The notes beneath the pieces were generated by a model that made no database searches, had not been told where the DNA came from, and was given only the letters and a program-made list of their open reading frames with translations. Shown piece by piece: positions 23,765 to 64,000 of a stretch of DNA of 64,000 bases. The stretch lies in assembly GCA_964387645.1 (NCBI GenBank), contig CAYLYM010000002.1, positions 642 through 64,641 on the forward strand, given 5' to 3'. Made by a program: the position numbers and the translations under genes. This DNA is from an uncultured Calditrichaceae bacterium. GTDB taxonomy: Bacteria; Calditrichota; Calditrichia; RBG-13-44-9. Position 1 is the first letter of the stretch. Each line of letters opens with the position of its first letter.

Positions 23765-24760
23765 ATGGCAAGACCTGTTACCCTTTTTACCGGTCAATGG
23801 GCTGATTTGCCCTTGAAAGATCTGGCCAAAATGGCTGCGGAGTGGGGCTACGATGGTCTGGAGTTAGCCTGTTGGGGTGATCACCTGGATGTCGAGAAGG
23901 CAGCTACGGATCTGGATTATTGTGAGAAGCAAAAGCAGATTTTAAAAGATAATAACCTTCAGCTATTTGCCATTAGCAACCATCTGGCTGGACAATTGGT
24001 ATGTGATCCTAACAACGACAGTCGTTCTGATGCTTTTGCTCCAGCTGATTGTGCGGGCGATCCGGAAAAAAAACGTGCCTGGGCAGTAGAATCTATGAAG
24101 AATGCTGCACGTGCCGCCAGGAATTTAGGCATCAAAATTGTAAATGGATTTACTGGCTCTTCAATCTGGCATATGTTCTATAGTTTCCCACCAGTAACTG
24201 ATCAGATGATTGAGGACGGTTTTAAATACTTTGCTGATATGTGGAATCCAATTCTGGATGTTTTTGATGAGTGTGGCGTAAAATTTGCGCTAGAAGTACA
24301 TCCCACTGAAATTGCTTTCGATCTTATTACTGCAAAAAAGGCTCTGGAAGCTATTAATTACCGGAAGTGTTTTGGCTTTAATTTCGATCCCAGCCATTTG
24401 CACTGGCAGATGGTCGATCCGGTAAAATTTATTTATGAATTCCCTGATAGGATTTTCCATGTTCATATGAAAGACGCTGCTTTACAATTAGATGGACGTA
24501 CTGGTATTCTTGGTTCGCATTTGAATTTTGGCCATCGTGAACGCGGATGGGATTTCCGTTCACTTGGTCGCGGCGGAGTGAATTTTGAAGAGATAATTCG
24601 AGCCCTCAACCATATTGGATACAAGGGGCCCCTCTCGGTTGAATGGGAAGACAGCGGAATGAAACGCGAGCAAGGAGCCAAGGAAGCCTGCGAATTTGTT
24701 AAAAGAATAGATTTTGAACCTTCACAGGTTGCCTTCGATGCAGCTTTTGAACAAGAATGA
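23765..24760 (+). CDS. Sugar phosphate isomerase/epimerase family (AP-endonuclease-2 TIM barrel), cytoplasmic
   Basis: [26 protein letters not shown] and SVEWE metal-binding motifs; no signal peptide. Confidence 0.88.
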
Positions 24761-24780
24761 TATTATAAAAGGTAAGAATA

Positions 24781-26100
24781 ATGAGTCCAAAAGAAAAGAT
24801 GAATCGGCGTGAATTTATAAAAAAATCAGTGGGAGCTGCTGCTTGTGCAGCAGCCTTCCCCGCTTTTATCCCTTCAAAAGTTTTAGGAAGAAACGGTTCA
24901 GTACCGCCTAGTGAGAAAATTACCATGGGTTTCATTGGTGTAGGTGGAATGGGAACGGGTAATTTGCGTGGTTTTATCGGAAAACCCGATGTTCAAGTTG
25001 TCGCAGTTTGTGATGTAGATACCGAGCACCGTAATAGGGCGCGAGATATTGTTAATTCAAGGTATGGTAATAAAGATTGTGCGACTTATAATGATTTTCG
25101 AGATTTATTAAACCGGGATGATATTGATGCGGTGTGCATTGCAACCCCAGATCATTGGCATGCATTAATTGCCGTTGCTGCAGCCCGGGCAAAAAAGGAT
25201 GTTTATGCCGAAAAACCGTTGGCCTATTCTATTGCCGAAGGTCGTGCCATTGTCGATGCTGTCCACCGTTATAACATCGTCTGGCAAACTGGTAGCCAGC
25301 AAAGGTCAGGTCGGAATTTTCGTTTTGCCTGTGAATTGGTTCGTAATGGACGAATCGGTGAAGTTAAAGTTGTCCGAGTGGGGTTGCCTTATGGGAATGG
25401 TATTCGCAAAGCCAGTACCAAACCTGCGCCTGTCCCCAGAGGATTCGATTACGACATGTGGTTAGGGCCGGCTCCGTGGGCACCTTATTGTCCTGCACGT
25501 TGCCACTGGAACTTCCGATGGATTAGTGATTACTCACAGGGTCAATTGACTGACTGGGCTGGTCATCACATTGATATTGCCCACTGGGGTATGAACACTG
25601 AATTGTCTGCTCCTATTGAAGTTTTCGATGCACGAGCTGATTATCCCAAAGCTGAAGACGGTCTTTTCGATACTCCTCCCAGTTATCGTTTTGTCTGTAA
25701 GTATAAAGAAGGTTTTACCATGGTCGTTTCTGATACCCGACAACATCCAATTGGACGAGGCGTGTTGTTTGAGGGTTCGGAAGGCTGGATATTTGTCAGC
25801 CGCAGCGGTATGAAAGCCAACCCGGAATCGCTCTTAAAATCGAAAATTGGACCAAACGAAATTCATCTTTACGAAAGCAATGATCACAGACAAAATTTTT
25901 TAGATTGTGTACGAACGAGGAAGAAAACGGTAGCCCCAGTTGATGTTGCTCATCATTCCATCATGGTAGCTCATATCGGTGCCATTGCCATGAAATTAGG
26001 GCGAAATTTGCGATGGGATAACAAAAAAGAACGTTTTATTGATGATCCAGAAGCCAATCGCTTACTTTCACGTCCCATGCGGAGTCCCTGGAAAATTTGA
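24781..26100 (+). CDS. Tat-exported Gfo/Idh/MocA oxidoreductase
   Basis: NRREFIK Tat motif; GFIGVGGMG, ATPDHWH, EKPL, DWAGHHID. Confidence 0.92.
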   Translation: MSPKEKMNRREFIKKSVGAAACAAAFPAFIPSKVLGRNGSVPPSEKITMGFIGVGGMGTGNLRGFIGKPDVQVVAVCDVDTEHRNRARDIVNSRYGNKDCATYNDFRDLLNRDDIDAVCIATPDHWHALIAVAAARAKKDVYAEKPLAYSIAEGRAIVDAVHRYNIVWQTGSQQRSGRNFRFACELVRNGRIGEVKVVRVGLPYGNGIRKASTKPAPVPRGFDYDMWLGPAPWAPYCPARCHWNFRWISDYSQGQLTDWAGHHIDIAHWGMNTELSAPIEVFDARADYPKAEDGLFDTPPSYRFVCKYKEGFTMVVSDTRQHPIGRGVLFEGSEGWIFVSRSGMKANPESLLKSKIGPNEIHLYESNDHRQNFLDCVRTRKKTVAPVDVAHHSIMVAHIGAIAMKLGRNLRWDNKKERFIDDPEANRLLSRPMRSPWKI

Positions 26101-26152
26101 TTAGAAAATTTTATATAATAATTTGAAATCAAAAATTATTCACCAAAAAATT

Positions 26153-32077: not shown

Positions 32078-33103
32078 ATGATGTCAGAAAAAATGAATCG
32101 TCGAAATTTTTTAAAGAAAACTTTAGCTGCATCAGCAACCGCTCCTCTGATTTTAAGTTTTGAAGAAAAAGCTTTGTTAGCGGCAAAATCCAATTATAGT
32201 AAATCACCGGAAAAGAAGACTGCTTCGATGAAAATCCCAACAGGAAAGATAAAAAATGTTGAAATCACCCGTTTAATCGTTGGTGGAAACCTTACCAGCG
32301 GTTTTGCCCATAGTCGTGATTTGATTTATGTATCATCATTGTTACGTCATTACTTTACAGATGATAAAATTTTCGAAACCTGGCAGCTTTGTGAGGAAAA
32401 TGGGATAAACACCGCCATCCTGCGACTGGATAATCAGGTGATCCGATTAATTAATAAGTACTGGCATGAAGTCGGTGGTAATATTCAGTGGTTAGCTCAG
32501 GTAAAGATCAAAGAAGATGATTTATTTTCAGATATCTCCCGGGCTATCGATAATGGAGCCATTGGAGCTTACATTCATGGAGGTGTGGCTGATAAATTTA
32601 TTACTCAGGGAAAAATTGATTTGATAGCCAAAGCAGTGGAGTATATTAAAGATAATGGGGTGATTGCCGGTGTTGCCGGTCATTTGTTGCAGGTGCCTAT
32701 GACCTGTGAGAAAGAGGGCCTGGATGTGGACTTTTACATGAAAACATTAAATAGTGGTAATTATTGGACGGCAGGGCCGCGATTAATCGAAGATGAAAAT
32801 TGGGTGCCTGATCCCGAGAAAGAGATTGTACCAGAATATAATCCCCGTACGCATGACAATATCTGGGCTACTACCCCCCAACAAACCATCGCTTTTATGA
32901 AAAAGGTAAAGAAGCCCTGGATTGCTTACAAGGTATTGGGTGCTGGAGCTATCCATCCGAAAGAAGGTTTTGATTATGCCTTCCGGAATGGAGCGGATTT
33001 CATTTGTGTAGGTATGTTTGATTTTCAGGTTCAGGAAGATGTGGCAATTGCTCAAAAGGTGCTTTCCAGCGATTTGAAACGCAAACGTCCCTGGTGTGCC
33101 TGA
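32078..33103 (+). CDS. Tat-exported aldo/keto-reductase-like fold protein
   Basis: NRRNFLK; ITRLIVGGN and KPWIAYKVLGAGAIHPKEGFDYAF, AKR-barrel-like. Start at 32078 or 32081 (GAGGGG SD). Confidence 0.65.
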   Translation: MMSEKMNRRNFLKKTLAASATAPLILSFEEKALLAAKSNYSKSPEKKTASMKIPTGKIKNVEITRLIVGGNLTSGFAHSRDLIYVSSLLRHYFTDDKIFETWQLCEENGINTAILRLDNQVIRLINKYWHEVGGNIQWLAQVKIKEDDLFSDISRAIDNGAIGAYIHGGVADKFITQGKIDLIAKAVEYIKDNGVIAGVAGHLLQVPMTCEKEGLDVDFYMKTLNSGNYWTAGPRLIEDENWVPDPEKEIVPEYNPRTHDNIWATTPQQTIAFMKKVKKPWIAYKVLGAGAIHPKEGFDYAFRNGADFICVGMFDFQVQEDVAIAQKVLSSDLKRKRPWCA

Positions 33104-33248: not shown

Positions 33249-34352
33249 ATGAAAAAATATCGCTACATTCTTGAATGCGGTTTTATTTTACTATTTACCA
33301 TTGTTATTTTGATTCTGATAGGTTGTGACCAGCAAAATGATCATCGAAAATTTGATTCTGCCAAAAAGATTGTTAAAGATCTTGACCCGTTCATGGGAGA
33401 CTACCAGGGAGAGATAACGTTTGATTCAGGAGAAAAACGACCTCTTTATTCCCAGGTTATTGCGTATGGTAATGGCCAATATCAAATCAATTTTTTAAAA
33501 GCTTTTGATGCAAGGAATGTTCTCATTTTTTCTACAAAGGTTCAAAAAACGGACCAATCCATCCAGTTTTCAAAAACAGTTTCAGAGGGTGAATTCAAAA
33601 ATTCAACGTGGGAAGGTTTACTTGGAGTAGAAGGTCTGGTGGGAAAAATTGAGGGAAGCCAGGCGGGACGTTTCCAATTGAAAAAAGTTGTCCGATTATC
33701 TCCCACTTTAGGTGCAAAACCGCCAGAGGGTGCGATTGTTCTTTTTGATGGCACTGGATTTGACGAGTGGGAAGGACGCGGAAAAGGCGGTTTACTGGGT
33801 TTATTATTCAAGCACAGTGAACCAGCCTGGAAATTGGTTGATGGTACAATGGAGGTGGTTCCACGAAGCGGTTCTATTCGAACGAAGAGAAAATTCAGGA
33901 ATTACAAATTACATTTGGAATTTCGAAGCCCTTTTATGCCTTTTGCGAAAGGGCAGAAACGCGGTAACAGTGGAGTATATAACCTGGAACGTTATGAAGT
34001 CCAGATTTTAGACTCTTATGGTCTGGAAGGAAAAGATAACGAATGTGGTGCTATTTACAAGGTTGCTGCTCCACGCGTGAACATGTGTGCTCCGCCTATG
34101 CAGTGGCAAACTTATGATATCACCTTCCATGCTCCTCAATTTGATCCCTCAGGAAAAAAAGTTCAAAATGCTCGCATCACTGTTGTGCACAATGGTGTCA
34201 CTATTCACAAAGACCTGGAAATTCCACATCCAACCGGCGGTGCAAGAATAAAACCCGAACAGATGATGGGTTCTATTTCATTGCAAGATCATGGAGATCC
34301 CGTCCAATTTCGGAATATATGGTTAGTTGAGTTACCTGATGGAAAACGGTAA
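33249..34352 (+). CDS. DUF1080 (3-keto-disaccharide hydrolase family) lipoprotein with N-terminal extension
   Basis: Lipobox LIGC; VLFDG, LHLEF, GNSGVY, WQTYDI, GSISLQDHGDPVQFRNIW. Confidence 0.88.
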   Translation: MKKYRYILECGFILLFTIVILILIGCDQQNDHRKFDSAKKIVKDLDPFMGDYQGEITFDSGEKRPLYSQVIAYGNGQYQINFLKAFDARNVLIFSTKVQKTDQSIQFSKTVSEGEFKNSTWEGLLGVEGLVGKIEGSQAGRFQLKKVVRLSPTLGAKPPEGAIVLFDGTGFDEWEGRGKGGLLGLLFKHSEPAWKLVDGTMEVVPRSGSIRTKRKFRNYKLHLEFRSPFMPFAKGQKRGNSGVYNLERYEVQILDSYGLEGKDNECGAIYKVAAPRVNMCAPPMQWQTYDITFHAPQFDPSGKKVQNARITVVHNGVTIHKDLEIPHPTGGARIKPEQMMGSISLQDHGDPVQFRNIWLVELPDGKR

Positions 34353-34410: not shown

Positions 34411-35358
34411 ATGAAACCACAAGATCAGGAAAAGAGACTTTCCCGCCGGGAGTTTTTATCCAGATCCGCCCTGGCGGCTGCTGCCATATCAGTCGTCGGT
34501 ACAACTTCCAAAAGCCAGGCTTCTAACAGTTCTGGCGATAAACATCATTTTAAACTGAAATATGCACCGCATTTTGGCATGTTCAAAAATCACGCCGGAA
34601 AAGACTTAATCGACCAGATAAAATTCATGGCGGATGTTGGATTTCGCGCCCTTGAAGATAATGGAATGAAGAACCGGTCAGTGGCTTTACAAGAAAAAAT
34701 TGCCAGTACCATGGCCAATTTAGGCATGGAAATGGGTGTGTTTGTTGCCCACAAAATCTATTGGAAAGAACCAAATCTTGCCAGTGGAGACGAATCGCTT
34801 CGTGAGGAATTTTTACAGCATATCAGAGAATCCGTGGATGTTGCTCGGCGTGTCAACGCCAAATGGATGACGGTAGTTCCTGGTCATGTGGATTTACGCA
34901 AGGACATGGGTTATCAAACAGCAAACGTCATTGAAGCATTAAAACGAGCTTGTGACATCCTGGAACCTCATGGTCTGGTGATGGTTTTAGAACCGCTGAA
35001 TTTTTATAACCATCCCGGCATGTTCCTCACTAAAATTCCGCAAGCCTATCAAATCTGTCGCGCTGTAAATAGTCCTTCTTGTAAAATTTTATTTGACATT
35101 TATCACCAACAAATCACTGAAGGCAATCTTATTCCTAACATCGATATGGCCTGGAGTGAAATTGGTTATTTTCAGATTGGTGATAATCCTGGAAGAAAAG
35201 AACCGACCACTGGAGAGATTAACTACAAGAATGTTTTCAAACATATTTATGAAAAAGGCTATAAAGGGATTCTTGGAATGGAACACGGAAACAGTAAAAA
35301 GGGCAAAGAGGGTGAGTTAGCAGTTATAGATGCTTATAAGGAAGTAGATTCATTTTAG
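34411..35358 (+). CDS. Tat-exported hydroxypyruvate-isomerase-like TIM barrel (AP-endonuclease-2 family)
   Basis: SRREFLS; YAPHFGMF, VLEPLN, LFDIYHQQITEGNL, QIGDNPGRKEPTTGEINY. Confidence 0.88.
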   Translation: MKPQDQEKRLSRREFLSRSALAAAAISVVGTTSKSQASNSSGDKHHFKLKYAPHFGMFKNHAGKDLIDQIKFMADVGFRALEDNGMKNRSVALQEKIASTMANLGMEMGVFVAHKIYWKEPNLASGDESLREEFLQHIRESVDVARRVNAKWMTVVPGHVDLRKDMGYQTANVIEALKRACDILEPHGLVMVLEPLNFYNHPGMFLTKIPQAYQICRAVNSPSCKILFDIYHQQITEGNLIPNIDMAWSEIGYFQIGDNPGRKEPTTGEINYKNVFKHIYEKGYKGILGMEHGNSKKGKEGELAVIDAYKEVDSF

Positions 35359-35393: not shown

Positions 35394-36074
35394 ATGAAAA
35401 AAATTGCTTATTTTGCACTATTTATTTGTTTTATTTTCGATTTTATCGAATGTACTCAAAAAGAGGAGCAAGAATCAACAGAGCCTGTTTCTCAAAAAGT
35501 CATCACACCTACTCAAAAAATTGTTCTCTGGAATGGTAAAGATTATTCCGGGTGGAAGCTGGTATTGGAGGATCCCGGTGTGGATGTAAAAACGGTGTGG
35601 TCTGTAAAAAATGGAAACGCTTATTGCACAGGCGTGCCCAAAGGGTATATGCGGACTGTGGACAGCTACACAAATTACAAACTTCATGTGGAATGGCGGT
35701 GGCCAGAAGAGCCAGGTAACAGTGGTGTGCTTCTTCACTGCCAGGAGCCGGATACGGTTTGGCCGGTGTGTGTTGAGGCGCAATTACATTCCGGGGATGC
35801 CGGAGATTTTATTTTAATGGGTGGCACTTTGCTCAATGAGCAGGTGGACAAGACGATGCGGAGAATTCGCAAAAAAGAAGAAAGCAGTGAAAAAGCCGCG
35901 GGTGAGTGGAATACTTATGATATTATTTGTAAGGACGATACCATTAAATTGTTTGTCAACGGCGTATTGCAGAATGTAGGGACTGGCTCTTCAGTGAAAT
36001 CGGGTTTTATTGCCTTACAGAGCGAAGGTAAACCCATTGAATTTAGAAATATTTATCTGGAACCAGTCGAGTGA
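35394..36074 (+). CDS. DUF1080 family protein, exported
   Basis: LWNGKDYSGW, YKLHVEWRW, GNSGVLLH, GEWNTYDI, GFIALQSEGKPIEFRNI. Confidence 0.88.
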   Translation: MKKIAYFALFICFIFDFIECTQKEEQESTEPVSQKVITPTQKIVLWNGKDYSGWKLVLEDPGVDVKTVWSVKNGNAYCTGVPKGYMRTVDSYTNYKLHVEWRWPEEPGNSGVLLHCQEPDTVWPVCVEAQLHSGDAGDFILMGGTLLNEQVDKTMRRIRKKEESSEKAAGEWNTYDIICKDDTIKLFVNGVLQNVGTGSSVKSGFIALQSEGKPIEFRNIYLEPVE

Positions 36075-36180: not shown

Positions 36181-37704
36181 ATGAAGAAGCTCCTGCGATT
36201 TCTGTTTCGTTTCATTCGTCGTCATTATATTCCTTTAATTTTCTTTTTTATTGGTATTGTAACTGTTTTTCTTATACGTAGCGGAATCGAATATACTTCA
36301 ACGGATGCGTTTTGTGAATCATGTCATGTACATCCACAGGCAATCTCCAGTTGGAAGTTAGGTCAGCATCGCGACACAGAGAGTGGTGTTGTGGCACATT
36401 GTACGGATTGTCATTTACCCCCCGATGGCTGGGATTACCTGGTAGCCAAAGCTAAAACAGGATTACGAGATATATTTAGTACATTATTTAAAGATGTATC
36501 CAGGATTGATTGGGAGTTGAAATCCCGTCGAGAACATGCCGTCAGGCATGTGTATAAAGCTTCATGTTTGAAGTGTCACCAGAATTTGTTTCCGAAAGGA
36601 TTAACTAAAAAAGGTGAGGATGCCCACCTTTATTATGAACAGAATGCGGAAAAGCTTCGATGTATCAATTGCCATTTGAAAGTCGGACACTTTCATAAAG
36701 AAGAACCGAAATTAGCTGCAATGAATGAGAAATCTGGTAAAGATAAAGTCATTTATACAAAGCCAGCAGTGGTAACAGAGTTTAAAGATTATACTGAATA
36801 TATCCCGGGAACTTCAGTGAGTTTTGAGATGGTAGCGATACCAGGTGGGACGTTTACTATTGGTAGCCCGCAAGATGAGCCTTACCGGGATGAAGATGAG
36901 GGGCCACAGCGTACCATCGAAATCAGTCCTTTTTGGATGGGAAAGACTGAAGTTAGTTGGGACGAATATTTTGCTTTTTACCGACAGACGCATCGTGAAG
37001 GCCGGAGCGAAGACCAATTGACTACAATCAAGAAAATATCAGATGTGAATGCCATTACTGGCCCAACTCCACCCTATGGTAATCCTGATCAGGGTTGGGG
37101 AAGAGGGAAACGTCCGGCCATTACCATGACATACCACGCCGCGACTGTCTATTGTCAATGGCTTTCGCAGGTCACGGGAAAAAAGTATCGTTTACCGACC
37201 GAAGCTGAATGGGAATATGCGGCCCGAGGAGGAACAACCGGCGCTTATTTCTTTGAAGGCGATCCGCGAAAGTTCTCTGAAACCCGCCTGTGGAATAAAA
37301 TTTTTGGCATCGATACCACCATTAATCAATATGTGATTTATCGGGGCAACAGTGGTGGGAAAACTCATTTGCCTTCAGCGGTGAAACCGAATCCTTTTGG
37401 ATTGTTACATATGCTTGGTAATGTAAAGGAATTTTGCCTGGATTGGTATGCACCAGATGCTTACGCTGCCTATCCTGCCGATGAAGTTATTAAAGATCCT
37501 ACCGGACCACCTACTGGTACGGAACATGTCATTCGTGGGGGATCTTTCAAAAGTTTGGCGTCAGAAGTTCGCGTTGCCGCACGTGAATCAACTCATCATG
37601 ATGCCTGGATGGTAACTGATCCACAAATGCCTAAAAGTATATGGTGGTATTCAGATAATAATGAAGTAGGCTTTCGGGTCGTATGCGAATATGAACAAGA
37701 ATAA
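36181..37704 (+). CDS. Fusion of NapC/NirT-type membrane tetraheme cytochrome c and FGE-sulfatase (SUMF1/EgtB/PvdO) fold
   Basis: N-terminal TM then TSTDAFCESCH, CTDCH, CLKCH, CINCH; C-terminal EMVAIPGGTFTIGS, YRLPTEAEWEYAARGG, PNPFGLLHMLGNVKE, VIRGGSF, GFRVV. Confidence 0.88.
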   Translation: MKKLLRFLFRFIRRHYIPLIFFFIGIVTVFLIRSGIEYTSTDAFCESCHVHPQAISSWKLGQHRDTESGVVAHCTDCHLPPDGWDYLVAKAKTGLRDIFSTLFKDVSRIDWELKSRREHAVRHVYKASCLKCHQNLFPKGLTKKGEDAHLYYEQNAEKLRCINCHLKVGHFHKEEPKLAAMNEKSGKDKVIYTKPAVVTEFKDYTEYIPGTSVSFEMVAIPGGTFTIGSPQDEPYRDEDEGPQRTIEISPFWMGKTEVSWDEYFAFYRQTHREGRSEDQLTTIKKISDVNAITGPTPPYGNPDQGWGRGKRPAITMTYHAATVYCQWLSQVTGKKYRLPTEAEWEYAARGGTTGAYFFEGDPRKFSETRLWNKIFGIDTTINQYVIYRGNSGGKTHLPSAVKPNPFGLLHMLGNVKEFCLDWYAPDAYAAYPADEVIKDPTGPPTGTEHVIRGGSFKSLASEVRVAARESTHHDAWMVTDPQMPKSIWWYSDNNEVGFRVVCEYEQE

Positions 37705-39163: not shown

Positions 39164-39249
39164 TACAAATTATCTTCTATTTAAAAGTATCTTCTATTTT
39201 AAATAAAGATGGTACTTAAAAAAAAAATTAATTAATGAGAGGGTTTAAG

Positions 39250-40734: not shown

Positions 40735-41808
40735 ATGAGTGACAAGATAAGAGTCATTGTCGTGGGTTGCGGGAATATGGGGTCTTCCCATGCTCGCGCT
40801 TATAAAGCTTTAGATGGTTTTGAATTGGTAGGATTAGTTGCCCGTACTTCTTTACGCCGAAGTCCTCTGGCCAAAGAATTGGGTGGAATTCCTGAATTTG
40901 ATACTCTTCGAAAAGCTATCATCGAAACCCAACCTGATGCAGCCGCTATTTGTACCTATCCCGATACCCATTATGAATTCACCCGAACCTGTCTTGAGGC
41001 CGGCATGCACGTTTTTGTAGAAAAACCATTAGCCGAAACTGTGGATCAGGCTAAAGAAATTGTTTATTTAGCTAAACAGAAGAACAAAAAGGTGGTGGTG
41101 GGATACATTTTACGACATCATCCCGCCTGGAAGCAGTTCGTGGAAGAAGCCCGTGCCCTTGGAAAACCACTGGTTATGCGGATGAATCTCAACCAGCAAA
41201 GCAAAGGAAAGGAATGGGAAACCCATAAAAATCTTATGAAGAGCATGTCTCCCATTGTGGATTGTGGCGTGCATTATGTGGATATCATGTGCCAGATGAC
41301 TCGATGTAAACCTATCCGGGTTCATGCTATCGGAGCCCGTTTAAGCCAGGAAGTTTCATCTGAGATGTATAATTACGGTCAATTGCAGGTTGTCTTTGAA
41401 GATGGATCGGTGGGGTGGTATGAAGCAGGATGGGGGCCCATGATGAGCCAGGTGGCTTTTTTTGTAAAAGATGTCATCGGACCTAACGGCTGTGTGAGTA
41501 TAGTTGAACCACAAGCAACAACTGAAGCAGCTTCCTCCGATATCGATTCCCACACCAAGACAAATTCATTATTGAAACATCTGGCAGAGGTTGATGAACA
41601 GGGCAATTTTGTTCACCGTGATGTTCTTATTGATACATCGGATGAACCGGATCACCAGGAACTGTGCAATCGAGAACAGGCTTACTTTTTAAAGGTCATT
41701 CAGGAAGATTTGGATTTAACAGATCATTTGGAAGATGCTATTAATAGTTTGAGAATTGTGCTTGCCGCCGATGAATCCGTTAGATCTGGCAGGGTAGTCT
41801 ATTTATGA
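40735..41808 (+). CDS. Cytoplasmic Gfo/Idh/MocA oxidoreductase
   Basis: VVGCGNMG at the very N-terminus (no signal), EKPL, DCGVHYVD. Confidence 0.9.
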   Translation: MSDKIRVIVVGCGNMGSSHARAYKALDGFELVGLVARTSLRRSPLAKELGGIPEFDTLRKAIIETQPDAAAICTYPDTHYEFTRTCLEAGMHVFVEKPLAETVDQAKEIVYLAKQKNKKVVVGYILRHHPAWKQFVEEARALGKPLVMRMNLNQQSKGKEWETHKNLMKSMSPIVDCGVHYVDIMCQMTRCKPIRVHAIGARLSQEVSSEMYNYGQLQVVFEDGSVGWYEAGWGPMMSQVAFFVKDVIGPNGCVSIVEPQATTEAASSDIDSHTKTNSLLKHLAEVDEQGNFVHRDVLIDTSDEPDHQELCNREQAYFLKVIQEDLDLTDHLEDAINSLRIVLAADESVRSGRVVYL

Positions 41809-49923: not shown

Positions 49924-51288
49924 ATGAGCAGTGACAAAAAACAAAACGCTATGGACAGAAGAAGTTTTTTGCGGTATACAGCTGTAGCTGGGGCCGGGCT
50001 TATGGTTACTTCTTTAGCTAGGCCTGCAAGAGTAACTTCTTCTTCAGACGATTTAAACATTGCCTTATTAGGGGCAGGAGCACAGGGACAAGTTTTAATG
50101 AATGCTATTCTAAAATTGAACGCCAAACCCAATATGCCGCAGGTGAGGTTTAGGGCCGTTTGCGATATTTGGAAAGATTACAACCAGAAACGGGCAGCTC
50201 GATTGTTACAGAAATATGGACATAATGTAAACCGTTATGAAGATTATCGGGAAATGCTGGCCAAAGAAAGGGATCTGGATGCGGTAATTATTGCTACGCC
50301 AGACTTTTGGCATGCTCGGCATACAATTGCCTGCTTGGAAGCCGGTTTAAATGTCTATTGTGAAAAAGAAATGTCTAATAAACTTGAAGATGCCAAAAAG
50401 ATGGTGCTGGCGGCTCGTCGAACTGGAAAGTTATTACAAATAGGGCATCAACGAAGGAGTAATCCACGTTATATACATTGCTATAACAAATTAATTAAAG
50501 ATGCCCAGATTCTGGGACGAATCACTACAACTCGCGGACAATGGAATCGATCGGTTCAGCCAGATTTAGGATGGCCCAAAAAGTATGCCATTGAACCAAG
50601 CGTCCTGAGAAAATATGGTTTTGAGAATATGCGGCAATTTAGAAATTGGCGTTGGTACAAACGACTAGGTGGCGGTCCAATTGTAGATTTAGGGTCCCAT
50701 CAAATTGATATCTTTAGTTGGTTTCTTGAAGCCAATCCTTCTTCAGTAATTGCCAGTGGTGGTACTGACTATTACGATAAAAGCACTCATGAATGGTATG
50801 ATACTGTAATGGTTATTTACGAATATGATACGAAATATGGAAAAGTGAGGGCATATTACCAGACCCTGACAACCAACAGTAGCGAAGGTTATTTCGAAAG
50901 CTTTCTTGGTGACCAGGGAACTTTACAAATTTCTGAATCTGGTAATCGTGGTGGTGTATGGCGAGAACCATCGGCTCCTATCTGGGATAAATGGGTGCAA
51001 ATGGGATATATTTTGGAACCTGAGGAGGAAAAAAAGAAACAGGATGTTACAGCGGTATTGGATGTGCGAGAAACTATTGCTCCACCCAAACACAATTTGC
51101 CAGTTGTATTAAAAGATCCGTATCATTTACCTCATTTACAGAATTTCTTTGATGCTGTTCGCGGAAAAACTAAGTTGAATTGTCCTGCTGAAATAGGTTA
51201 TGAAACAGCCGTGGCTGTTCTGAAGGTGAACCAGGCGGTTGAAGCTGGCCGAAAGCTCACCTTTAGGCCCGAAGAGTTTCATGTTTAA
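49924..51288 (+). CDS. Tat-exported Gfo/Idh/MocA oxidoreductase (EKE variant)
   Basis: DRRSFLR; ALLGAGAQG, ATPDFWH, CEKEM in place of EKP, DLGSHQID. Start moved to 49924. Confidence 0.88.
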   Translation: MSSDKKQNAMDRRSFLRYTAVAGAGLMVTSLARPARVTSSSDDLNIALLGAGAQGQVLMNAILKLNAKPNMPQVRFRAVCDIWKDYNQKRAARLLQKYGHNVNRYEDYREMLAKERDLDAVIIATPDFWHARHTIACLEAGLNVYCEKEMSNKLEDAKKMVLAARRTGKLLQIGHQRRSNPRYIHCYNKLIKDAQILGRITTTRGQWNRSVQPDLGWPKKYAIEPSVLRKYGFENMRQFRNWRWYKRLGGGPIVDLGSHQIDIFSWFLEANPSSVIASGGTDYYDKSTHEWYDTVMVIYEYDTKYGKVRAYYQTLTTNSSEGYFESFLGDQGTLQISESGNRGGVWREPSAPIWDKWVQMGYILEPEEEKKKQDVTAVLDVRETIAPPKHNLPVVLKDPYHLPHLQNFFDAVRGKTKLNCPAEIGYETAVAVLKVNQAVEAGRKLTFRPEEFHV

Positions 51289-51318: not shown

Positions 51319-53289
51319 ATGGCAAAAGTAGGAATAATATTCTGCCTGATAGGTGTGGTGCATTTCCTTTTTGCACAAGCAGATACCTCGCAATCGGGTA
51401 TCGACACTCAGAAAGTAGCTTCGGATTCTATAATTAGTGAGCAACCAAAAAAGCTGGAATTAAAGCTAGGCGACAAAAATGACGGAAATCGTTCGATACC
51501 GATTCACCTTATCGATATATTCGATGAAGAGGGCATGAAAATATTTCCTGAGGATCGCCCGCAGTTACCATTTTCTACCAAACAAACCTGTTTACCTTGT
51601 CACAATTATGAAATTATCCGTAGAGGATGGCATTTTAATGCTTTGGATCAAGATGTTCCCCCAGGGAGACGTGGTGAACCATGGATTTTGTATGATCCTT
51701 TAACCGCTACACAATTACCATTGTCGTATCGTTCCTGGCCGGGGAGCTATCGACCCGAAGATTTAGGTATAAATTATTTCACTTTCACTCGAAAGTTTGG
51801 TCGGCATTTTCCGGGTGGTGGTCCTGGAGAGAAAGCCGAAGAAGACGATCCAGATGCCTATGTTCGCTGGATGGTTTCTGGCCAATTGGAGATTAATTGT
51901 TTGAGCTGTCATAATGCCCATCCTGAACATGATCAAGCCGAATTTGCTGCTCATGTGACTCGAGAAAATTATCGGTGGGCAGCGGCAGCATCAAGTGGAC
52001 TGGCCATAGGTAAAGGTTCCGCCAAAGACATGCCTAATAATTTTGATATTTATTTTGGTATCGATCCGGATAATCCCAGAGCCATACCCCCTAGCATAAC
52101 TTACAAACCTAATATTTTTGACGAAAGAGCTCGGGTTTTTTTCAATCTTGTCAGGAAAGTTCCTGCAGAAAGGTGTTATTTTTGTCACTCTACTGTTTAT
52201 TTAGAGGAAAATTTGGTGGAAATGTGGGAAATGGATGAGGATGTTCATCTCAAGGCGGGAATGACTTGTGTAGATTGCCATCGTAACGGATTAGATCACA
52301 TGATTGTGAGAGGTTATGAAGGAGAATCGGAGGTGAGAGAAAATCCTGTTATTGCTTCATTTACTTGTAAAGGTTGTCATCTGGGTACTGAAGATGGAGA
52401 AATTCCCCTTACCGGTCGATTAGGTGCCCCAAGGCCTGAGCACAAAGGTATTCCAACCGTCCATTTTGAAAGACTTTCCTGTACAGCTTGTCATTCTGGC
52501 CCCTGGCCAACTGACCATGCTTATCGCATTAAAACTTCTAGAGCAAATGCACTGGGCACTCATACCGTCAATCGAAATGAAGAAATTATTCCCAAGCTTC
52601 AAGCAACCGTTTTTGTAAAAGATGAATCCGGGAAAATTGAACCACATAAGTTGCTTTGGCCTTCTTTTTGGGCTGAAATCAAAGGTGACAGTGTGACTCC
52701 ATTGCTTCCGGAAAAAGTACAACCGGCTATTCTCAAAGCCTTAGCTGCGGATACTTTAACGGATAGTATGAATTATGAAAAAATACTTTCTGGCGATTGG
52801 CCAGAATTAAGCAGAGATCAGATTATCCTGATTTTGAAAGAATTATCATCTGATAGTACTCATCCTATGCATGCAGCTTATATTGGTGGAGGAAAATTAT
52901 ATAAACTTTCTAAATCAGGAGATCTGGTAAAAGAAAATCATCCTGCTGCTCAACCCTATACCTGGGCATTCGCTCATGATGTTCGACCAGCATCCCAATC
53001 ACTGGGCATTCATGGTTGCAATGATTGTCATAATAATAGCGCCCCCTTTTATTTTAGCAAGGTAGCTGTTCTATCACCTTTGAAATTCCAGAATGAGAAA
53101 TTTCGTAGAATGACTTCTTTTGAAAAAACAGGTGTTTTATTTCCAAGACTCTTCGCCATGACATTTATTTTCCGACCCTGGTTAAAGTTAATAATTTTCA
53201 TTTGTAGTATTATTATCGCTTCAGTATTAATTCTTTATGCCTTCAAAGGCCTGGACAAGATTATAAAAGTTTTAGCGGATCAACAATAA
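51319..53289 (+). CDS. Periplasmic multiheme (7x CxxCH) cytochrome c with C-terminal membrane anchor
   Basis: Sec signal; CLPCH, CLSCH, CYFCH, CVDCH, CKGCH, CTACH, CNDCH; C-terminal hydrophobic helix. ATG 51319 follows an AGGGGAG SD. Confidence 0.88.
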   Translation: MAKVGIIFCLIGVVHFLFAQADTSQSGIDTQKVASDSIISEQPKKLELKLGDKNDGNRSIPIHLIDIFDEEGMKIFPEDRPQLPFSTKQTCLPCHNYEIIRRGWHFNALDQDVPPGRRGEPWILYDPLTATQLPLSYRSWPGSYRPEDLGINYFTFTRKFGRHFPGGGPGEKAEEDDPDAYVRWMVSGQLEINCLSCHNAHPEHDQAEFAAHVTRENYRWAAAASSGLAIGKGSAKDMPNNFDIYFGIDPDNPRAIPPSITYKPNIFDERARVFFNLVRKVPAERCYFCHSTVYLEENLVEMWEMDEDVHLKAGMTCVDCHRNGLDHMIVRGYEGESEVRENPVIASFTCKGCHLGTEDGEIPLTGRLGAPRPEHKGIPTVHFERLSCTACHSGPWPTDHAYRIKTSRANALGTHTVNRNEEIIPKLQATVFVKDESGKIEPHKLLWPSFWAEIKGDSVTPLLPEKVQPAILKALAADTLTDSMNYEKILSGDWPELSRDQIILILKELSSDSTHPMHAAYIGGGKLYKLSKSGDLVKENHPAAQPYTWAFAHDVRPASQSLGIHGCNDCHNNSAPFYFSKVAVLSPLKFQNEKFRRMTSFEKTGVLFPRLFAMTFIFRPWLKLIIFICSIIIASVLILYAFKGLDKIIKVLADQQ

Positions 53290-53308: not shown

Positions 53309-53968
53309 ATGTTTTTCCGAATATTATCATTTATTGGATTGATAGCTGTTATTATATGGATTTATTCTGCTTTAAAATCCAATCAAGAAATAAAGAAAAG
53401 TATAGGAGTATGGATAAAAGGGCAAATTCAAGAAATTTTTATTGCTTTTAAAAATATTAAAAAAACGCCTCCATCTGATTATTTTGTAATTTTCAGGAAA
53501 ACTATTTATTTTTTAACAATTTTATGTGTGCTAATTTTAGCATTTACTGGATTTTTACCAGTACTTTTTGGTAGTCACCTTTCTGGTTATTTGCTTTTGA
53601 TTCATGTGAGTGTGGCGCCTATTTTTGCTATTTGTATGGCTCTTATTAGCCTTATTTGGGCTAGTCAAAAACGTTTTGACCGTCTCAATTGGGAATGGTT
53701 TAGAAAATTATTTAAAAAAAATCGAAATCAAAGTAATAGTGTTCAATTTTATAATTGTACAGAAAAAGTATTCTTCTGGTTTTTGTTAATTTTAGCTTTG
53801 ATAATAATTCTATCCATATTGTTAAGCATGCTTAAATATTTTGGAACTGGAGCGCAGGAGTTTTTGATACAATTGCATAGGTTTAGTGCCTTGTTTTTTG
53901 TGATAGCTTCGTGTTACCATACGTATTTAATAATATTTCAATGTATTAAAGAAAAATCTATAAAGTGA
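53309..53968 (+). CDS. Cytochrome b-like membrane protein (FdnI/formate dehydrogenase gamma-like)
   Basis: 4-5 TM helices; LLIHVSV, FYNCTEKVFFW, and QLH...CYH with His residues 14 apart; the helix-I His position appears to be Tyr (RKTIYF). Confidence 0.7.
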   Translation: MFFRILSFIGLIAVIIWIYSALKSNQEIKKSIGVWIKGQIQEIFIAFKNIKKTPPSDYFVIFRKTIYFLTILCVLILAFTGFLPVLFGSHLSGYLLLIHVSVAPIFAICMALISLIWASQKRFDRLNWEWFRKLFKKNRNQSNSVQFYNCTEKVFFWFLLILALIIILSILLSMLKYFGTGAQEFLIQLHRFSALFFVIASCYHTYLIIFQCIKEKSIK

Positions 53969-54138: not shown

Positions 54139-55287
54139 ATGGAAAAAATTGTATGTTTATTAGCGCTTTATGGTTTGGGAATGTGTTTTGCATTATTGGG
54201 ATCAATTAGTGTTAAGCTAATGCCGCGATTGGAAATTGATGAAGGAAAATTTGGATCCTTAATCTCGGTTTTTATGTTTTCTGCAGTGATTGCCTCGCTT
54301 ATTATTGGAGTGGTAATTGATTCGATTGGTTATAAACCTGTTGCAATTATTGGTTTTCTTTTTACTGGATTAGTTATTTTGCTCATGGCTCGTGGTAAAA
54401 CTTATGGTCTGGTGTTGATATCGTGTATATTATTGGGATTTGGAGCTATGGCATTAAATACTGCTGGAAATACTTTAGCACCAGTTGTATTATTTGGAGG
54501 AAAGAATCCAGCGGCTGCTAGTAATCTTGGTAATGTATTCTTTGGATTAGGCCTATTTCTTACTCCATTAATTGTTAGTTACTTATTTAAAAAGATTTCC
54601 TATGAAAATGCTGTTTCTGTTCTTGGTATAATTGCTTTTGTTCCCCTTATTTTTGCTATTCCTGCAACCTACCCAGCAAGTCAAGCCGGATTTAAACTTT
54701 CGACTGCATTTGGATTACTTGGTGAGCCCGCTGTCTTACTCGGAGCTATAACACTCTTTTTCTACATAAGCTTAGAATCTTCACTTACTAACTGGTTGCC
54801 TTCATTTGGTAAAGAAATTATTAAAAAAGCACAGAGTGATATTGATGAAAATGTCGTGGATGCCTCAGCAGCACAGTTACTTTCATTTTTTGCTATTGCT
54901 ATGATGATTGGTCGATTAATTGCAAGTCAGATTCCCGCCATTACTACTTATGGAGCCTGGTTTATTATTGGTGCTGCATTGCTTTCTTTAATAATAATAT
55001 TTTTAATGACTATTACCAAAAGTGTAATGTTTTCCAGAGTTTGTGCTTTTCTTGCTGGTTTATTTTTTGCTCCTATATTTCCAACAACAGTGGGAGTTAC
55101 ATTTGCTAAATTCAATCCCGAAATTTATGGAAGTATCTTTGGTATTATCTTTGCTGTAGGTTTGCTTGGTGCTGTAACTATACCTAAAGCAATAGGTAAT
55201 TTGGCTCGTGGAACGAGTGTTCAAAAAGGTATGAGACTTCTTATACCTGCATGTATAATTCTAATAGTTTTAGGCTTTTTCTTATAA
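54139..55287 (+). CDS. MFS sugar transporter
   Basis: About 12 TM helices; GVVIDSIGYK loop, NLGNVFFGLG, AMMIGRL, APIFPT. Confidence 0.85.
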   Translation: MEKIVCLLALYGLGMCFALLGSISVKLMPRLEIDEGKFGSLISVFMFSAVIASLIIGVVIDSIGYKPVAIIGFLFTGLVILLMARGKTYGLVLISCILLGFGAMALNTAGNTLAPVVLFGGKNPAAASNLGNVFFGLGLFLTPLIVSYLFKKISYENAVSVLGIIAFVPLIFAIPATYPASQAGFKLSTAFGLLGEPAVLLGAITLFFYISLESSLTNWLPSFGKEIIKKAQSDIDENVVDASAAQLLSFFAIAMMIGRLIASQIPAITTYGAWFIIGAALLSLIIIFLMTITKSVMFSRVCAFLAGLFFAPIFPTTVGVTFAKFNPEIYGSIFGIIFAVGLLGAVTIPKAIGNLARGTSVQKGMRLLIPACIILIVLGFFL

Positions 55288-61677: not shown

Positions 61678-61939
61678 GTTTATAATTTTAAAATCCGATT
61701 TTTAAACCCACCCAACACAAAAACTATAATTGTAAAAAAATGTAACAATATTGCTGTTTTTCATACCTTTTTTTAATTTATTTTCTAAATATACTTAATT
61801 ATAAAATATTGAAGATAGTTAGTAAAAAACTGACTGAGAATTATCTATTCAAATCTGGAACATAATTTATTGGGGAAAATTTTAAAAATAGAGACTAAAA
61901 TGTACGAGGGAAATTTTGGAAAGAAGACATCAAAACTCT

Positions 61940-63208
61940 ATGGGAATATTGAATAGGCGGCAATTTATTAAACGAGCTGCTTCCAGCACTTTTGCAACAT
62001 TTGCTGCCCCTTTTATAGTTCCAGCAAGTGTGTTTGGTGCCAATGCTCCCAGCAACCGAATAACTATTGGTAGCATTGGTGTTGGAGGTATGGGCACTAA
62101 TAATCTGCGTGGATTCATGTCTCAACCTGGAGCACAAGTAGTAGCTGTTTGTGATGTGGATACTGAACATAGAGAACGAGCTCGCAAGATTGCGGGTCTT
62201 GATAAATCGGCCGCATATAACGATTTTCGTGAGTTACTTGCCAGAGATGATATCGATGCTGTGGTCGTCTGCACCCCTGACCATTGGCACGTACCGATCT
62301 CCATTGCTGCAGCAAAAAGTGGTAAAGATATTTATTGTGAAAAGCCCTTGACCAGATACATTGCCGAAGGAAGAAGATTGGTAGAGACAGTTCGGAGATA
62401 TAACCGCATCTTACAAACGGGGTCTCAGCAGCGTTCTGATGATCGCTTTCGTTTTGCTTGCGAATTGGTGCTTAATGGGCGAATAGGCGAACTTCGCACA
62501 ATGTGGGTGGAAATTCCAGGGAATAATCGGAAAAATCCACTTAATTGGAAAGTTGAACCTGTACCAGAGGGATTTGATTATGAAATGTGGTTAGGTCCGG
62601 CGCCCTGGGCACCGTATACAAAACAACGATGTCATTACACTTTTCGATTTATCTTGGATTATTCTGGCGGACAGATCACCAATTGGGGTGCCCATTATCT
62701 GGATATTGCTCAATGGGGAAACGGGACTGATCTTACTGGTCCGGTTGAAATAGAAGGTAATGGTGAATTCCCTCGTGATGGACTTTTTAATACGGCATTA
62801 CGATATCATATTGAATACAAATATGCCAATGGAGTTAAATTAATTTTAAATACAGGTAAAGCTGGTATTCGGTTCGAAGGAACGGAAGGGTGGGTTTATG
62901 TCGATCGAAGTCGAATTGATGCTGATCCGAAATATATATTAAAATCTAAAATCAGGCCTGATGAAAAGCATTTATATGTGAGTCGTGACCATAAAGCTAA
63001 TTTTTTAGAATCTATTAAGCTGCGTAAAAAGCCTATTGCTGATGTAGAAATTGGTCACCGATCAGCGACATTGTGTCATTTAGGAAATATTGCTCTTTTT
63101 ACCGGACGTAAATTGTATTGGGATCCTGATCAGGAAAGGTTTATCAACGATGATGTTGCTAATAGTTATCTTGAACCGAGCCGACGTCCACCCTGGCATA
63201 AGGATTAA
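61940..63208 (+). CDS. Tat-exported Gfo/Idh/MocA oxidoreductase
   Basis: NRRQFIK; GSIGVGGMG, TPDHWH, EKPL, NWGAHYLD. ATG 61940 preferred; the TTG at 61916 remains possible. Confidence 0.9.
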   Translation: MGILNRRQFIKRAASSTFATFAAPFIVPASVFGANAPSNRITIGSIGVGGMGTNNLRGFMSQPGAQVVAVCDVDTEHRERARKIAGLDKSAAYNDFRELLARDDIDAVVVCTPDHWHVPISIAAAKSGKDIYCEKPLTRYIAEGRRLVETVRRYNRILQTGSQQRSDDRFRFACELVLNGRIGELRTMWVEIPGNNRKNPLNWKVEPVPEGFDYEMWLGPAPWAPYTKQRCHYTFRFILDYSGGQITNWGAHYLDIAQWGNGTDLTGPVEIEGNGEFPRDGLFNTALRYHIEYKYANGVKLILNTGKAGIRFEGTEGWVYVDRSRIDADPKYILKSKIRPDEKHLYVSRDHKANFLESIKLRKKPIADVEIGHRSATLCHLGNIALFTGRKLYWDPDQERFINDDVANSYLEPSRRPPWHKD

Positions 63209-63331
63209 GTCTATTTTTTAATAGATTCTGTTAAAATAAATAGATTAATTAAAGGTTGTTGTTGATTGAAATTTTGATATAGAATTTACTATTTAATGGG
63301 AATTGTTTATAAAAGATAAAAAGGATTAATA

Positions 63332-64000
63332 ATGGTATTAAAAAAGAAAAATCTAATTGTTGTTTTTTTACTATTTTTTGCTGCATGCAGTCCAACAAAT
63401 AACAAATCGGTTGTAATTCATCTCCAAAGTGAGCCTTCGCTAATTTCTGGAGAGAATATTCCATTAAATGTCGCATTGGAACTTCCTGATCAATTTAAAA
63501 ATACTGCTTTAAATGAGATTTTAGTAAAAGTTCAGCAAAAAGGAAATTCTTCCTCCATACTGGATGGGCAGTTATCCCACGGACCTGATGGTAAGATTTA
63601 TTTATGGTGGATTGCTCCGAAAATTGAAAAAGGTCAGGTGATGAGTTGGCAGGTTACTCTGACCAAAGGTTCACGGGAAATGCAAAAAAAAGGATTTCGA
63701 TGGAAGGATGTACCAGGCCAATATCTAGATTTACAATTTGATGGACGGAATATTATTCGTTATGTATATGCATACGATCGTTCATCTCCAGAAAAAATCG
63801 AAGAAACGAATAAACCCTTTCATCATATATTTGATTTCGATGGTAAAGACTTTATTACAAATAGTCCAGGCGGTCTTTACCCACACCATAGAGGATTATT
63901 TATTGGATGGCAGAAAGTAGAATGTGGTTCGCAAACTTTCAATTTCTGGTCTATGGAAGAAGGTGTTTCTCAAAAACATCAAAAATTTTTACAGATAGAA
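63332..64000 (+). CDS. Lipoprotein of the DUF6807/PmoA-named family, truncated by the window end; not in ORF track
   Basis: Open frame of 223 codons from ATG 63332 (AAGGA SD) to the window end; lipobox FAAC; KPFHHIFD...PGGLYPHHRGLFIGW motif. Confidence 0.7.
   Translation, partial: MVLKKKNLIVVFLLFFAACSPTNNKSVVIHLQSEPSLISGENIPLNVALELPDQFKNTALNEILVKVQQKGNSSSILDGQLSHGPDGKIYLWWIAPKIEKGQVMSWQVTLTKGSREMQKKGFRWKDVPGQYLDLQFDGRNIIRYVYAYDRSSPEKIEETNKPFHHIFDFDGKDFITNSPGGLYPHHRGLFIGWQKVECGSQTFNFWSMEEGVSQKHQKFLQIE

Follow-up and report, generated by a model that had tools for sequence, protein, structure and literature searches.

How does an exported sugar dehydrogenase dispose of the electrons that it has collected? 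The question is raised by a 64,000-nucleotide stretch of contig CAYLYM010000002.1 from an uncultured Calditrichaceae bacterium (hereafter the window), in which a 40-kb block at positions 23,765 to 64,000 combines ten genes for Gfo/Idh/MocA dehydrogenases (Gfo) with two cytochrome modules and with enzyme families of the 3-keto-glycoside pathway. In the characterised systems, Bacteroides thetaiotaomicron BT2156-BT2160 and Alistipes AL1-AL5, the Gfo enzyme BT2158/AL3 is exported by twin-arginine translocation (Tat) with tightly bound NAD and makes the 3-keto-glycoside, the AP_endonuc_2 (AP2) barrel AL1 (BT1 in the paper, locus tag BT2156) acts as lyase on 3-keto-beta-glucosides, AL2 (BT2 in the paper, locus tag BT2157), a DUF1080 protein, is both alpha-lyase and glucal hydratase, and the cytosolic Gfo is dispensable in vitro (Liu et al. 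2021, PMC8121099; Nasseri et al. 2024, bioRxiv 10.1101/2024.03.25.586180). Nasseri et al. showed that AL3/BT3 are limited in vitro by re-oxidation of the NADH that they bind tightly, and speculated that cytochromes might take on this task in vivo. This route of glycoside cleavage was elucidated only recently, in Bacteroidota of the gut, and how an exported dehydrogenase re-oxidises its NADH in a compartment without free NAD remained a gap. On balance, we favour the reading that the block consists of conserved 3-keto-glycoside modules in series, two Gfo subfamilies of which would be coupled to the membrane, with electrons passing from sugar to quinone.

Dehydrogenases and their cytochrome neighbours

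An earlier note, made from the letters of the window, had described the block as an expanded, glycosidase-free and multi-specific version of the BT2156-BT2159 pathway, with embedded cytochromes that may make it respiratory. All of its gene counts were reproduced by Pfam. The Gfo genes are 24781, 26123, 27556, 37838, 39235, 40735, 43147, 49864, 60150 and 61916, named here by their start positions; all except 40735 encode an N-terminal RRxF[LI] twin-arginine motif, which is also found on two AP2 barrels (34411 and 59165) and on an unnamed protein (32081). Five domains of the DUF1080 family (PF06439, 3keto-disac_hyd), scoring 129-328 bits and above the gathering score, are distributed over four genes (33249, 35394, 44406 with two, and 48096). 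There are four AP2 barrels (23765, without signal peptide; 34411 and 59165, Tat; 48096, a lipoprotein fused to DUF1080), one ThuA-HEAT protein (29072), two MFS permeases (41862 and 54139) and two cytochrome modules (36181; 51289 plus 53309). Compared with the open reading frame (ORF) list, three starts lie further downstream in the public gene calls, at 32081, 49924 and 51319; 49864 and 49924 are one and the same Gfo gene (GfoX), and 51289 and 51319 one heptahaem cytochrome gene (MHC), the second start being the public call in each case.

Judged by its sequence, 39235 is the only one of the ten Gfo demonstrably of the BT2158/AL3 glycoside 3-dehydrogenase type, the others being assigned at family level. 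It is ~50% identical to AL3/BT3, matches 8TDF over its full length (E 5e-122) and reaches 558 bits on the NCBIfam model NF058561, over positions 1-437 of the 487 in the model; this falls short of the equivalog cut-off of 750 bits. Each of the six pocket residues of AL3 is kept (Gln161, Arg192, Trp195, Asp248, His252 and Tyr349, in a numbering derived from the 8TDF alignment), and its Tat motif reads TRRDFI at residue 18. The other nine score 30-185 bits on NF058561, over the N-terminal half only. They share only the Rossmann half with AL3 and are without the Arg, Trp and Tyr with which it binds sugar; all of them retain the EK lysine and the DxxxH histidine as well as the Rossmann loop. Four form group A (24781, 26123, 27556 and 61916; 44-53% identity among the four), which in the PDB search match AL3/BT3 over the N-terminal ~230 residues only. 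The remaining five are singletons: 43147, which matches 8TDF over the N-terminal half only, 60150, 49864, 37838 and the cytoplasmic 40735, which reaches only 45 bits to BT_2159_fam.

Two of these singletons have cytochromes as neighbours. The first, GfoX, precedes MHC, whose family comprises at least 2630 homologues (~50-60% identity) in which the seven haem motifs, the signal peptide and the C-terminal membrane helix are all conserved. MHC has no NCBIfam model, no Pfam family of its own and no solved relative at E <= 0.01. A scan with one genome per species found it in 504 species genomes. Neighbours were counted in the best 80 of the 504, all of them metagenome-assembled genomes (MAGs), labelled KSB1, Calditrichota, Planctomycetota (Phycisphaerae, Sedimentisphaerales, Pirellulales), Bacteroidota/Ignavibacteria, Omnitrophota and Acidobacteriota; ORFs were called and classified against the window proteins, and the denominators are the loci with enough sequence. 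A 49924-type Gfo, 47-74% identical to GfoX, lies immediately upstream of MHC in 71/71 loci, and a cytochrome b (CytB) immediately downstream in 69/73. GfoX retains the Rossmann GxGxxG, EK and DxxxH motifs, and its closest PDB entry is DgpA.

The second, the lipoprotein Gfo 37838, follows 36181, a fusion of a NapC/NirT tetrahaem cytochrome to a domain resembling the formylglycine-generating enzyme (FGE). This protein has CxxCH motifs at residues 45, 74, 129 and 161 and an N-terminal hydrophobic segment at 16-33, and its NCBIfam matches are NrfH and TorC. Its family has at least 7900 matches, and both domains are present in all of the top 120. Downstream sequence is available for 18 full-length fusions, and in all 18 a 37838-type Gfo (52-70% identical) comes directly after. 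FGE-only homologues adjoin 37838-type Gfo in ~30 metagenome loci, with ApbE beside many of them; these FGE-only relatives have [ST]RP[ST] in the loop described below.

This strict synteny (71/71 and 18/18) suggests that the cytochromes are part of the sugar machinery and gives strong comparative support to the earlier suggestion to that effect. A competing explanation is that the pathway is redox-neutral as in Bacteroides and that the cytochromes serve envelope glycan or protein modification, or sulfatase maturation. It could appeal to the FGE-sulfatase Pfam domain of the fusion and to the PMT-type GT-C, GT2 and ApbE genes that come after the trio of GfoX, MHC and CytB in most relatives. We nevertheless give it very little credence: the adjacency of Gfo and cytochrome is invariant in both pairs, the catalytic Cys pair of FGE is deleted, Pfam finds no sulfatase among the window ORFs, and the trio of the window is without PMT, GT2 and ApbE.

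As to those downstream genes, in most relatives (L005-L084; e.g. L004 14205-18122) the trio is followed by an F5/F8-type-C lectin-like protein, a PMT-type GT-C, ApbE and GT2. The lectin-like protein is secreted, ~186 residues long and very conserved. Within 6 kb downstream of the trio, it is found in 37/48 loci, PMT-type GT-C in 36/48, ApbE in 31/48 and GT2 in 16/48; tblastn finds none of the four in the window. The set looks like a kit for periplasmic protein or lipid glycosylation and flavinylation. A flavinylation target near the trio was considered as an explanation for the adjoining ApbE and rejected, no such motif being present in the 80 loci.

Proposed electron flow and a possible route from hydride to haem

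In the mechanism that we favour, Tat-exported Gfo enzymes, loaded with nicotinamide before export, would oxidise a sugar hydroxyl, at C3 in the case of 39235. AP2 barrels and DUF1080 domains would then eliminate the aglycone and hydrate the resulting glucal, the products would be imported by the MFS permeases, and the hydratase homologue 23765, the dehydrogenase 40735, the AGE epimerase and the kinase-phosphatase fusion would complete the pathway in the cytoplasm. GfoX, the membrane-anchored heptahaem cytochrome and the cytochrome b would form a three-part unit with the layout of formate dehydrogenase-N, and the lipoprotein Gfo 37838 would work with the NapC/NirT tetrahaem quinol dehydrogenase. 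With electrons delivered from sugar to quinone, the bound cofactor would be recycled with no keto-sugar as oxidant, and energy would be conserved.

What the sequences show is the gene content, the export signals, the haem motifs, the orthology of 39235 and the strict synteny of both Gfo-cytochrome pairs. Physical complexes, substrates, flavinylation and the direction of electron flow are what we infer, and we consider that electrons, flowing towards respiration, most likely run from sugar to quinone. Ketone/alcohol couples lie at about -0.2 V and menaquinone at about -0.07 V, so the former can reduce the latter. The trio shares its layout with formate dehydrogenase-N and [NiFe]-hydrogenase (FdnGHI), i.e. 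a Tat catalytic subunit, a subunit anchored by one C-terminal helix and a predicted Ni_hydr_CYTB cytochrome b. It differs in having seven c-type haems instead of iron-sulfur clusters, a Gfo catalytic subunit and two conserved CytB histidines. Like NapC, NirT, NrfH and CymA, 36181 has an N-terminal membrane helix and four CxxCH motifs, but it is fused to an FGE-like domain of ~300 residues and paired with a sugar-type dehydrogenase rather than with a nitrite, nitrate or trimethylamine N-oxide reductase.

The same modules could also operate in reverse, with GfoX and 37838 using quinol electrons to turn keto-sugars of the periplasm (3-keto-glucose or the hydrated glucal) back into ordinary sugars, thereby freeing the BT2158-like enzymes for further glycoside oxidation. 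A dedicated reductase would be useful because AL3/BT3 equilibrate sugar and 3-keto-sugar at about 1:1 and 3-keto-glucose turns into an unreactive furanose; moreover, NapC/NirT/NrfH proteins, which include the NCBIfam matches of 36181, are classically quinol dehydrogenases that feed periplasmic reductases. By the redox potentials given above, however, quinol-driven reduction of a ketone would be uphill without energy input, and in periplasmic dehydrogenases a cytochrome b of the FdnI type normally serves as the end that reduces quinone. We therefore regard reverse flow as improbable.

A further alternative concerns the substrate. The cytochrome-linked Gfo may have free monosaccharides, inositols or other polyols as substrates, like the membrane-bound periplasmic dehydrogenases of acetic acid bacteria, and be mere neighbours of the glycoside-cleaving genes. 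GfoX and 37838 are without the AL3 pocket residues; the solved relatives closest to them are DgpA, inositol dehydrogenases and glucose-fructose oxidoreductase; and in one locus (L088) the NapC-FGE and Gfo pair stands alone, without other sugar genes. Gene context speaks for glycosides instead. In the 6 kb upstream of MHC, 39/49 loci have a DUF1080 gene and 26/49 a 48096-like AP2-DUF1080 fusion, and an AP2 barrel directly precedes NapC-FGE in 3/4 of the genome loci examined. A BT2158-like Gfo is also found within 6 kb upstream in 29/49 MHC loci. On this evidence, we consider action on free sugars unlikely, and retain the reading in which both cytochrome-linked Gfo belong to a 3-keto-glycoside pathway that feeds quinone.

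How would a hydride on an enzyme-bound nicotinamide reach a haem? The FGE-like domain of 36181 may hold a clue. Its best PDB match is 6S07 (E 1e-27), and it belongs to the same fold family as FGE, PvdO and GldK/PorK. It is not a true formylglycine-generating enzyme, since the catalytic Cys pair (C-x-x-x-x-C after RGGS[FY]) is deleted: where 6S07 and 2Q17 have RGGS[FY]LCH[ED]SYCNRYRVAAR, the window reads RGGSF-KSLASEVRVAAR. Instead, it has its own loop, D[AG]x[TS]G[PA]T, which in the family takes the form D[AG][IVL][TS]G[PA]T followed by PPY and in the window is NAITGPT (residues ~291-297); genuine FGE carries DAVVPEAPW at this position. An exact canonical ApbE motif (DAxSGAT/DAxTGAT) stands at this loop in 7 of the 18 full-length fusion loci and in 14 of 59 top homologues, the latter being those whose loop could be located. 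We suggest that the FGE-like domain probably docks the dehydrogenase and, from its loop, that it may carry covalent flavin mononucleotide (FMN) as an adaptor between two-electron and one-electron steps, which would solve the problem of handing a hydride on enzyme-bound NAD(P)H over to haems that take up one electron at a time. We found no paper that links FGE-like domains to flavinylation, and the domain is unmentioned in two flavinylation surveys.

More tentatively, and with doubt outweighing conviction, we propose that the two pairs represent two undescribed classes of respiratory dehydrogenase complex, in which a Tat-exported, nicotinamide-loaded Gfo passes electrons to the quinone pool either via a heptahaem cytochrome and cytochrome b, or via a NapC tetrahaem cytochrome with ApbE-attached FMN on the FGE-like domain.

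Several points weigh against a respiratory 3-keto-glycoside pathway of this kind. Firstly, the missing AL3 sugar-binding residues suggest that the substrates of GfoX and 37838 may not be glycosides. Secondly, we know of no established route from Rossmann-bound NAD(P)H to haem without a flavin or similar adaptor, and the evidence for a flavin is mixed: the loop of the window is two positions off the canonical flavinylation motif, tblastn finds no ApbE gene in the window, and a flavinylation-like motif is absent from all ORFs of the 80 GfoX-MHC-CytB loci. Thirdly, CytB has two histidines, His99 and His190, conserved at 99% (72 sequences) and no other conserved histidine, which is enough for one bis-His haem but not for two. 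Fourthly, a different role could be indicated by the lectin, PMT, ApbE and GT2 genes that follow the trio in most relatives. Finally, the association between Gfo and cytochrome was scored in the direction from cytochrome to Gfo only.

The 3-keto-glycoside pathway family is already known, and so is respiratory formation of 3-keto-glycosides, by the FAD-type LacABC (PMC9007349). Like the pathway proposed here, LacABC, which is known from Caulobacter and Agrobacterium (Price et al. 2022, PMC9007349), forms 3-keto-glycosides in the periplasm and delivers electrons to the respiratory chain by way of a cytochrome; DUF1080 proteins are encoded close by in both cases. It differs in being a flavoprotein with its own cytochrome c, whereas the window has nicotinamide Rossmann enzymes, with a heptahaem cytochrome plus cytochrome b and a NapC tetrahaem cytochrome. 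Literature searches turned up no Gfo/Idh/MocA dehydrogenase described as tied by gene order to a multihaem cytochrome plus cytochrome b, or to a NapC-FGE fusion.

The window and ~100 related loci suggest that many environmental phyla have solved NADH re-oxidation with dedicated cytochromes. If this is true, glycoside cleavage would itself be energy-conserving in KSB1, Calditrichota, Planctomycetota and related phyla, and the cleavage step of glycan degradation would itself supply the respiratory chain directly in sediments and soils. A function would then be gained for three protein families that are very large and uncharacterised (the heptahaem cytochrome, the NapC-FGE fusion and the TIM barrel 32081), and the glycan-degrading capacity of these organisms would be underestimated by genome surveys restricted to CAZy hydrolases. 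The strict gene pairs provide defined sets that can be expressed heterologously, one of three genes and one of two.

Candidate glycoside-cleaving gene set and search for glycosidases

The block shares its enzyme families with BT2156-BT2160 and AL1-AL5. Compared with these, it has ten dehydrogenases instead of two, an AP2-DUF1080 fusion, putative HEAT scaffolds, ThuA and a new Tat TIM-barrel family. It also has two cytochrome modules where they have none; theirs is a redox-neutral system, thought to recycle NAD by reducing 3-keto-glucose.

Among the AP2 barrels, 23765 is by sequence a full-length homologue of 2-hydroxy-3-keto-glucal hydratase (8RO4, E 3.8e-52, residues 8-326 against 14-332; 2ZDS, 399 bits). 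The closest PDB entries to 34411 are 3NGF, hydroxypyruvate-isomerase-like and tagatose-epimerase-like; barrels of its type sit just upstream of NapC-FGE in other loci. No PDB relative was found for 59165. AL1/BT1 is not among the 28 PDB matches (E <= 0.001) of the four barrels, which are thus without detectable relation to it and are members at the level of the PF01261 family.

The DUF1080 domains match BT2157 (8TDA) weakly, with E about 1e-12 (1.5e-12). In BT2157, the H275N substitution in Gln273-x-His275 is reported to abolish hydration (PMC13273386). A C-terminal L-Q-x-H is present in 33249, in both domains of 44406 and in 48096, as judged by motif position and not by residue-level alignment to BT2157. 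With Q-S-E at this place, 35394 may perhaps be a lyase-only or otherwise divergent member of the family.

The earlier assignment of the block to a BT2156-BT2159-type pathway therefore stands in part: the three enzyme types are present and exported, and 39235 is a close relative of AL3/BT3, but nine Gfo, the AP2 barrels and the DUF1080 domains are members at family level only. The assignment of the whole block to glycoside cleavage draws on one good orthologue, on family-level membership and on gene context. Since the other proteins are distant from their AL/BT counterparts, it is from family membership that we infer multi-specific glycoside cleavage.

Two large proteins carry HEAT repeats, 29072 with a ThuA domain and 44406 with two DUF1080 domains. 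They are 25% identical over ~570 residues and could be scaffolds for periplasmic enzymes. A group-A Gfo followed by ThuA-HEAT is an order seen in many loci. C-terminal cytochrome c domains are common on such proteins in Planctomycetes; neither 29072 nor 44406 has one, as neither contains CxxCH. ThuAB of Sinorhizobium and Agrobacterium likewise places a ThuA domain beside a ThuB-like Gfo and is linked to 3-keto-disaccharide formation, but the ThuA domain of the window is secreted and fused to a HEAT-repeat part of ~650 residues, with Tat-exported Gfo next to it.

The Tat protein 32081 has no Pfam or NCBIfam match and belongs to a family of at least 7775 homologues at ~60% identity. A structure search with its model returned only generic TIM-barrel fold matches (TM ~0.5). 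In a Fidelibacterota genome, four paralogues stand in tandem in a cluster of the same type (L169 3898-8075), and in loci of the Omnitrophota type two to four paralogues directly precede GfoX, in place of the DUF1080 and AP2 genes.

No recognisable glycoside hydrolase had been seen in the block, and none was found when the search was widened: no ORF of at least 100 residues in the whole 64-kb window matches a glycoside-hydrolase Pfam family. GH109 and GH4 cleave glycosides by transient C3 oxidation, elimination and hydration, and GH109 further shares the Gfo/Idh/MocA fold and the Tat signal; both differ from the pathway considered here in being redox-neutral and in carrying out every step within a single active site. 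GH109-like Tat Gfo would break the glycosidase-free description. This was rejected, as no GH109 structure appears in the PDB match lists of six Gfo (60150 and 37838 at <=1e-6; 49864 at <=1e-8; 24781, 43147 and 39235 at <=1e-10). The description thus holds as far as Pfam and PDB sequence searches reach.

Modular build and surroundings of the block

Identical gene orders recur in dozens of unrelated MAGs, and the clustering is therefore not due to chance. The synteny proposed as a check exists, and it alters the picture of an expanded island: the gene counts stand, but instead of a one-off expansion the 40 kb are four or five sub-modules strung together, each of which is also conserved in other phyla. 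The first comprises the AP2 barrel 23765, the group-A Gfo genes and ThuA-HEAT (compare L039, L010, L012, L016 and L169). The second runs from the TIM barrel 32081 through DUF1080, Tat AP2, DUF1080, NapC-FGE and Gfo 37838 on into 39235 and 40735; L092 keeps this order from the first DUF1080 on, and L169 has the four tandem TIM-barrel copies. In the third, the cytoplasmic Gfo 40735, an MFS permease, Gfo 43147 and the HEAT protein with two DUF1080 domains, an order conserved across loci, lead on into GfoX (compare L035, L036, L063 and L074). The fourth consists of AP2-DUF1080, GfoX, the heptahaem cytochrome, cytochrome b and an MFS permease, and this five-gene order is found again on a closed Planctomycetota chromosome. 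The fifth contains the epimerase, the kinase-phosphatase fusion, a Tat AP2 barrel, two Tat Gfo and the DUF6807 protein. The features of the block are collected in the table.

Table. Features of the block, in window coordinates
Feature	Position	Strand	Basis
Cytoplasmic AP_endonuc_2 TIM barrel	23765..24760	+	Pfam 158 bits; no signal peptide
Group-A Tat Gfo, first of three tandem paralogues	24781-26100	+	Pfam, Tat motif
Group-A Tat Gfo, second of three	26123-27532	+	Pfam, Tat motif
Group-A Tat Gfo, third of three	27556-28881	+	Pfam, Tat motif
Secreted ThuA + HEAT repeats, 944 residues	29072..31906	+	ThuA PF06283 152 bits (full model), HEAT_2 127 bits
Tat TIM-barrel protein, unnamed family	32081..33103	+	AF2 model, pLDDT 75
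Lipoprotein, C-terminal DUF1080	33249..34352	+	PF06439 138 bits
Tat AP_endonuc_2 barrel	34411..35358	+	Pfam 122 bits; Tat motif
Secreted single-domain DUF1080	35394..36074	+	Pfam 129 bits; Q-S-E replaces Q-x-H; sequence '...ALQSEGKPIEFRN'
Membrane-anchored NapC/NirT tetrahaem cytochrome + FGE-like domain	36181..37704	+	Cytochrom_NNT PF03264 98 bits; FGE-sulfatase PF03781 149 bits
Tat lipoprotein Gfo, conserved partner of NapC-FGE fusion	37838..39163	+	Pfam, Tat motif + lipobox
Predicted BT2158/AL3-type glycoside 3-dehydrogenase (Tat)	39235..40641	+	NF058561, 8TDF match, pocket residues
Cytoplasmic Gfo/Idh/MocA, candidate keto-sugar reductase	40735..41808	+	Pfam; no signal peptide
MFS permease, Nuc_H_symport type	41862..43088	+	Pfam 318 bits
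Tat-exported Gfo	43147..44418	+	PF19051 476 bits
Lipoprotein, HEAT repeats + two DUF1080, 1148 residues	44406..47852	+	Pfam; no CxxCH
Lipoprotein, AP_endonuc_2 barrel + DUF1080 fusion	48096..49574	+	Pfam; PDB 3P6L 259 bits (barrel)
GfoX, Tat Gfo, obligate neighbour of heptahaem cytochrome	49924..51288	+	Pfam; synteny
MHC, heptahaem c-type cytochrome	51319..53289	+	7 CxxCH; signal peptide; C-terminal membrane helix
CytB, predicted membrane cytochrome b, Ni_hydr_CYTB/FdnI family	53309..53968	+	PF01292 45 bits (cut-off 30.1); TIGR01583 36 bits
MFS permease	54139..55287	+	Pfam; position same in L032, L057, L066
AGE-family 2-epimerase	55677-56951	+	Pfam; NCBIfam below cut-offs
PfkB kinase-HAD phosphatase fusion	57030-58964	+	Pfam; NCBIfam below cut-offs
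Tat AP2 barrel	59165-60082	+	Pfam, Tat motif
Tat Gfo	60150-61616	+	Pfam, Tat motif
Group-A Tat Gfo	61916-63208	+	Pfam, Tat motif
Lipoprotein, DUF6807 (PmoA-like), cut by window end	63332..64000	+	PF14100 48 bits

The DUF6807 gene is cut at 64000, the right edge of the window, so the size of the island is a lower bound; the cluster probably continues beyond, on a deposited contig of 73,044 bp. All 44 large ORFs of the window are on the + strand, as is every ORF of at least 100 residues with a database match (window 1-64000). GC skew is positive in all 2-kb bins and the cumulative skew climbs monotonically over the same range. Skew and shared strand are consistent with a single long co-oriented stretch of leading strand. 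Promoter and terminator scans gave counts at or below shuffle expectation and are thus uninformative on operon structure; Rfam has no match in the window.

The 23 kb upstream of the block encode hexuronate catabolism and pentose-phosphate enzymes, without a glycoside-hydrolase Pfam domain. Sugar metabolism is represented between 1 and 23560 by a tagaturonate-epimerase-like protein (1767), an SSF symporter, an SDR, transketolase, 6-phosphogluconate dehydrogenase, a LarA-N-like protein (10431), phosphofructokinase, a GHMP kinase and nucleotidyltransferase, glucuronate isomerase, a TRAP transporter and a CBM9/DUF5916 protein (21401). A Lar_N - 6PGD - UxaC neighbourhood similar to this upstream block lies near a homologue of 32081 in L170.

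For three protein families, the nearest relatives are ~55-75% identical and labelled KSB1, Calditrichota or Fidelibacterota. DNA 99.9% identical to the window is present in two metagenomes from JGI. A contig at this identity (L001) is without ~75 bp (47146-47220) and ~90 bp (47816-47906), inside or just after the second DUF1080 domain of 44406, and the gene is called there as two, of 925 and 170 residues; these gaps are strain or assembly variation.

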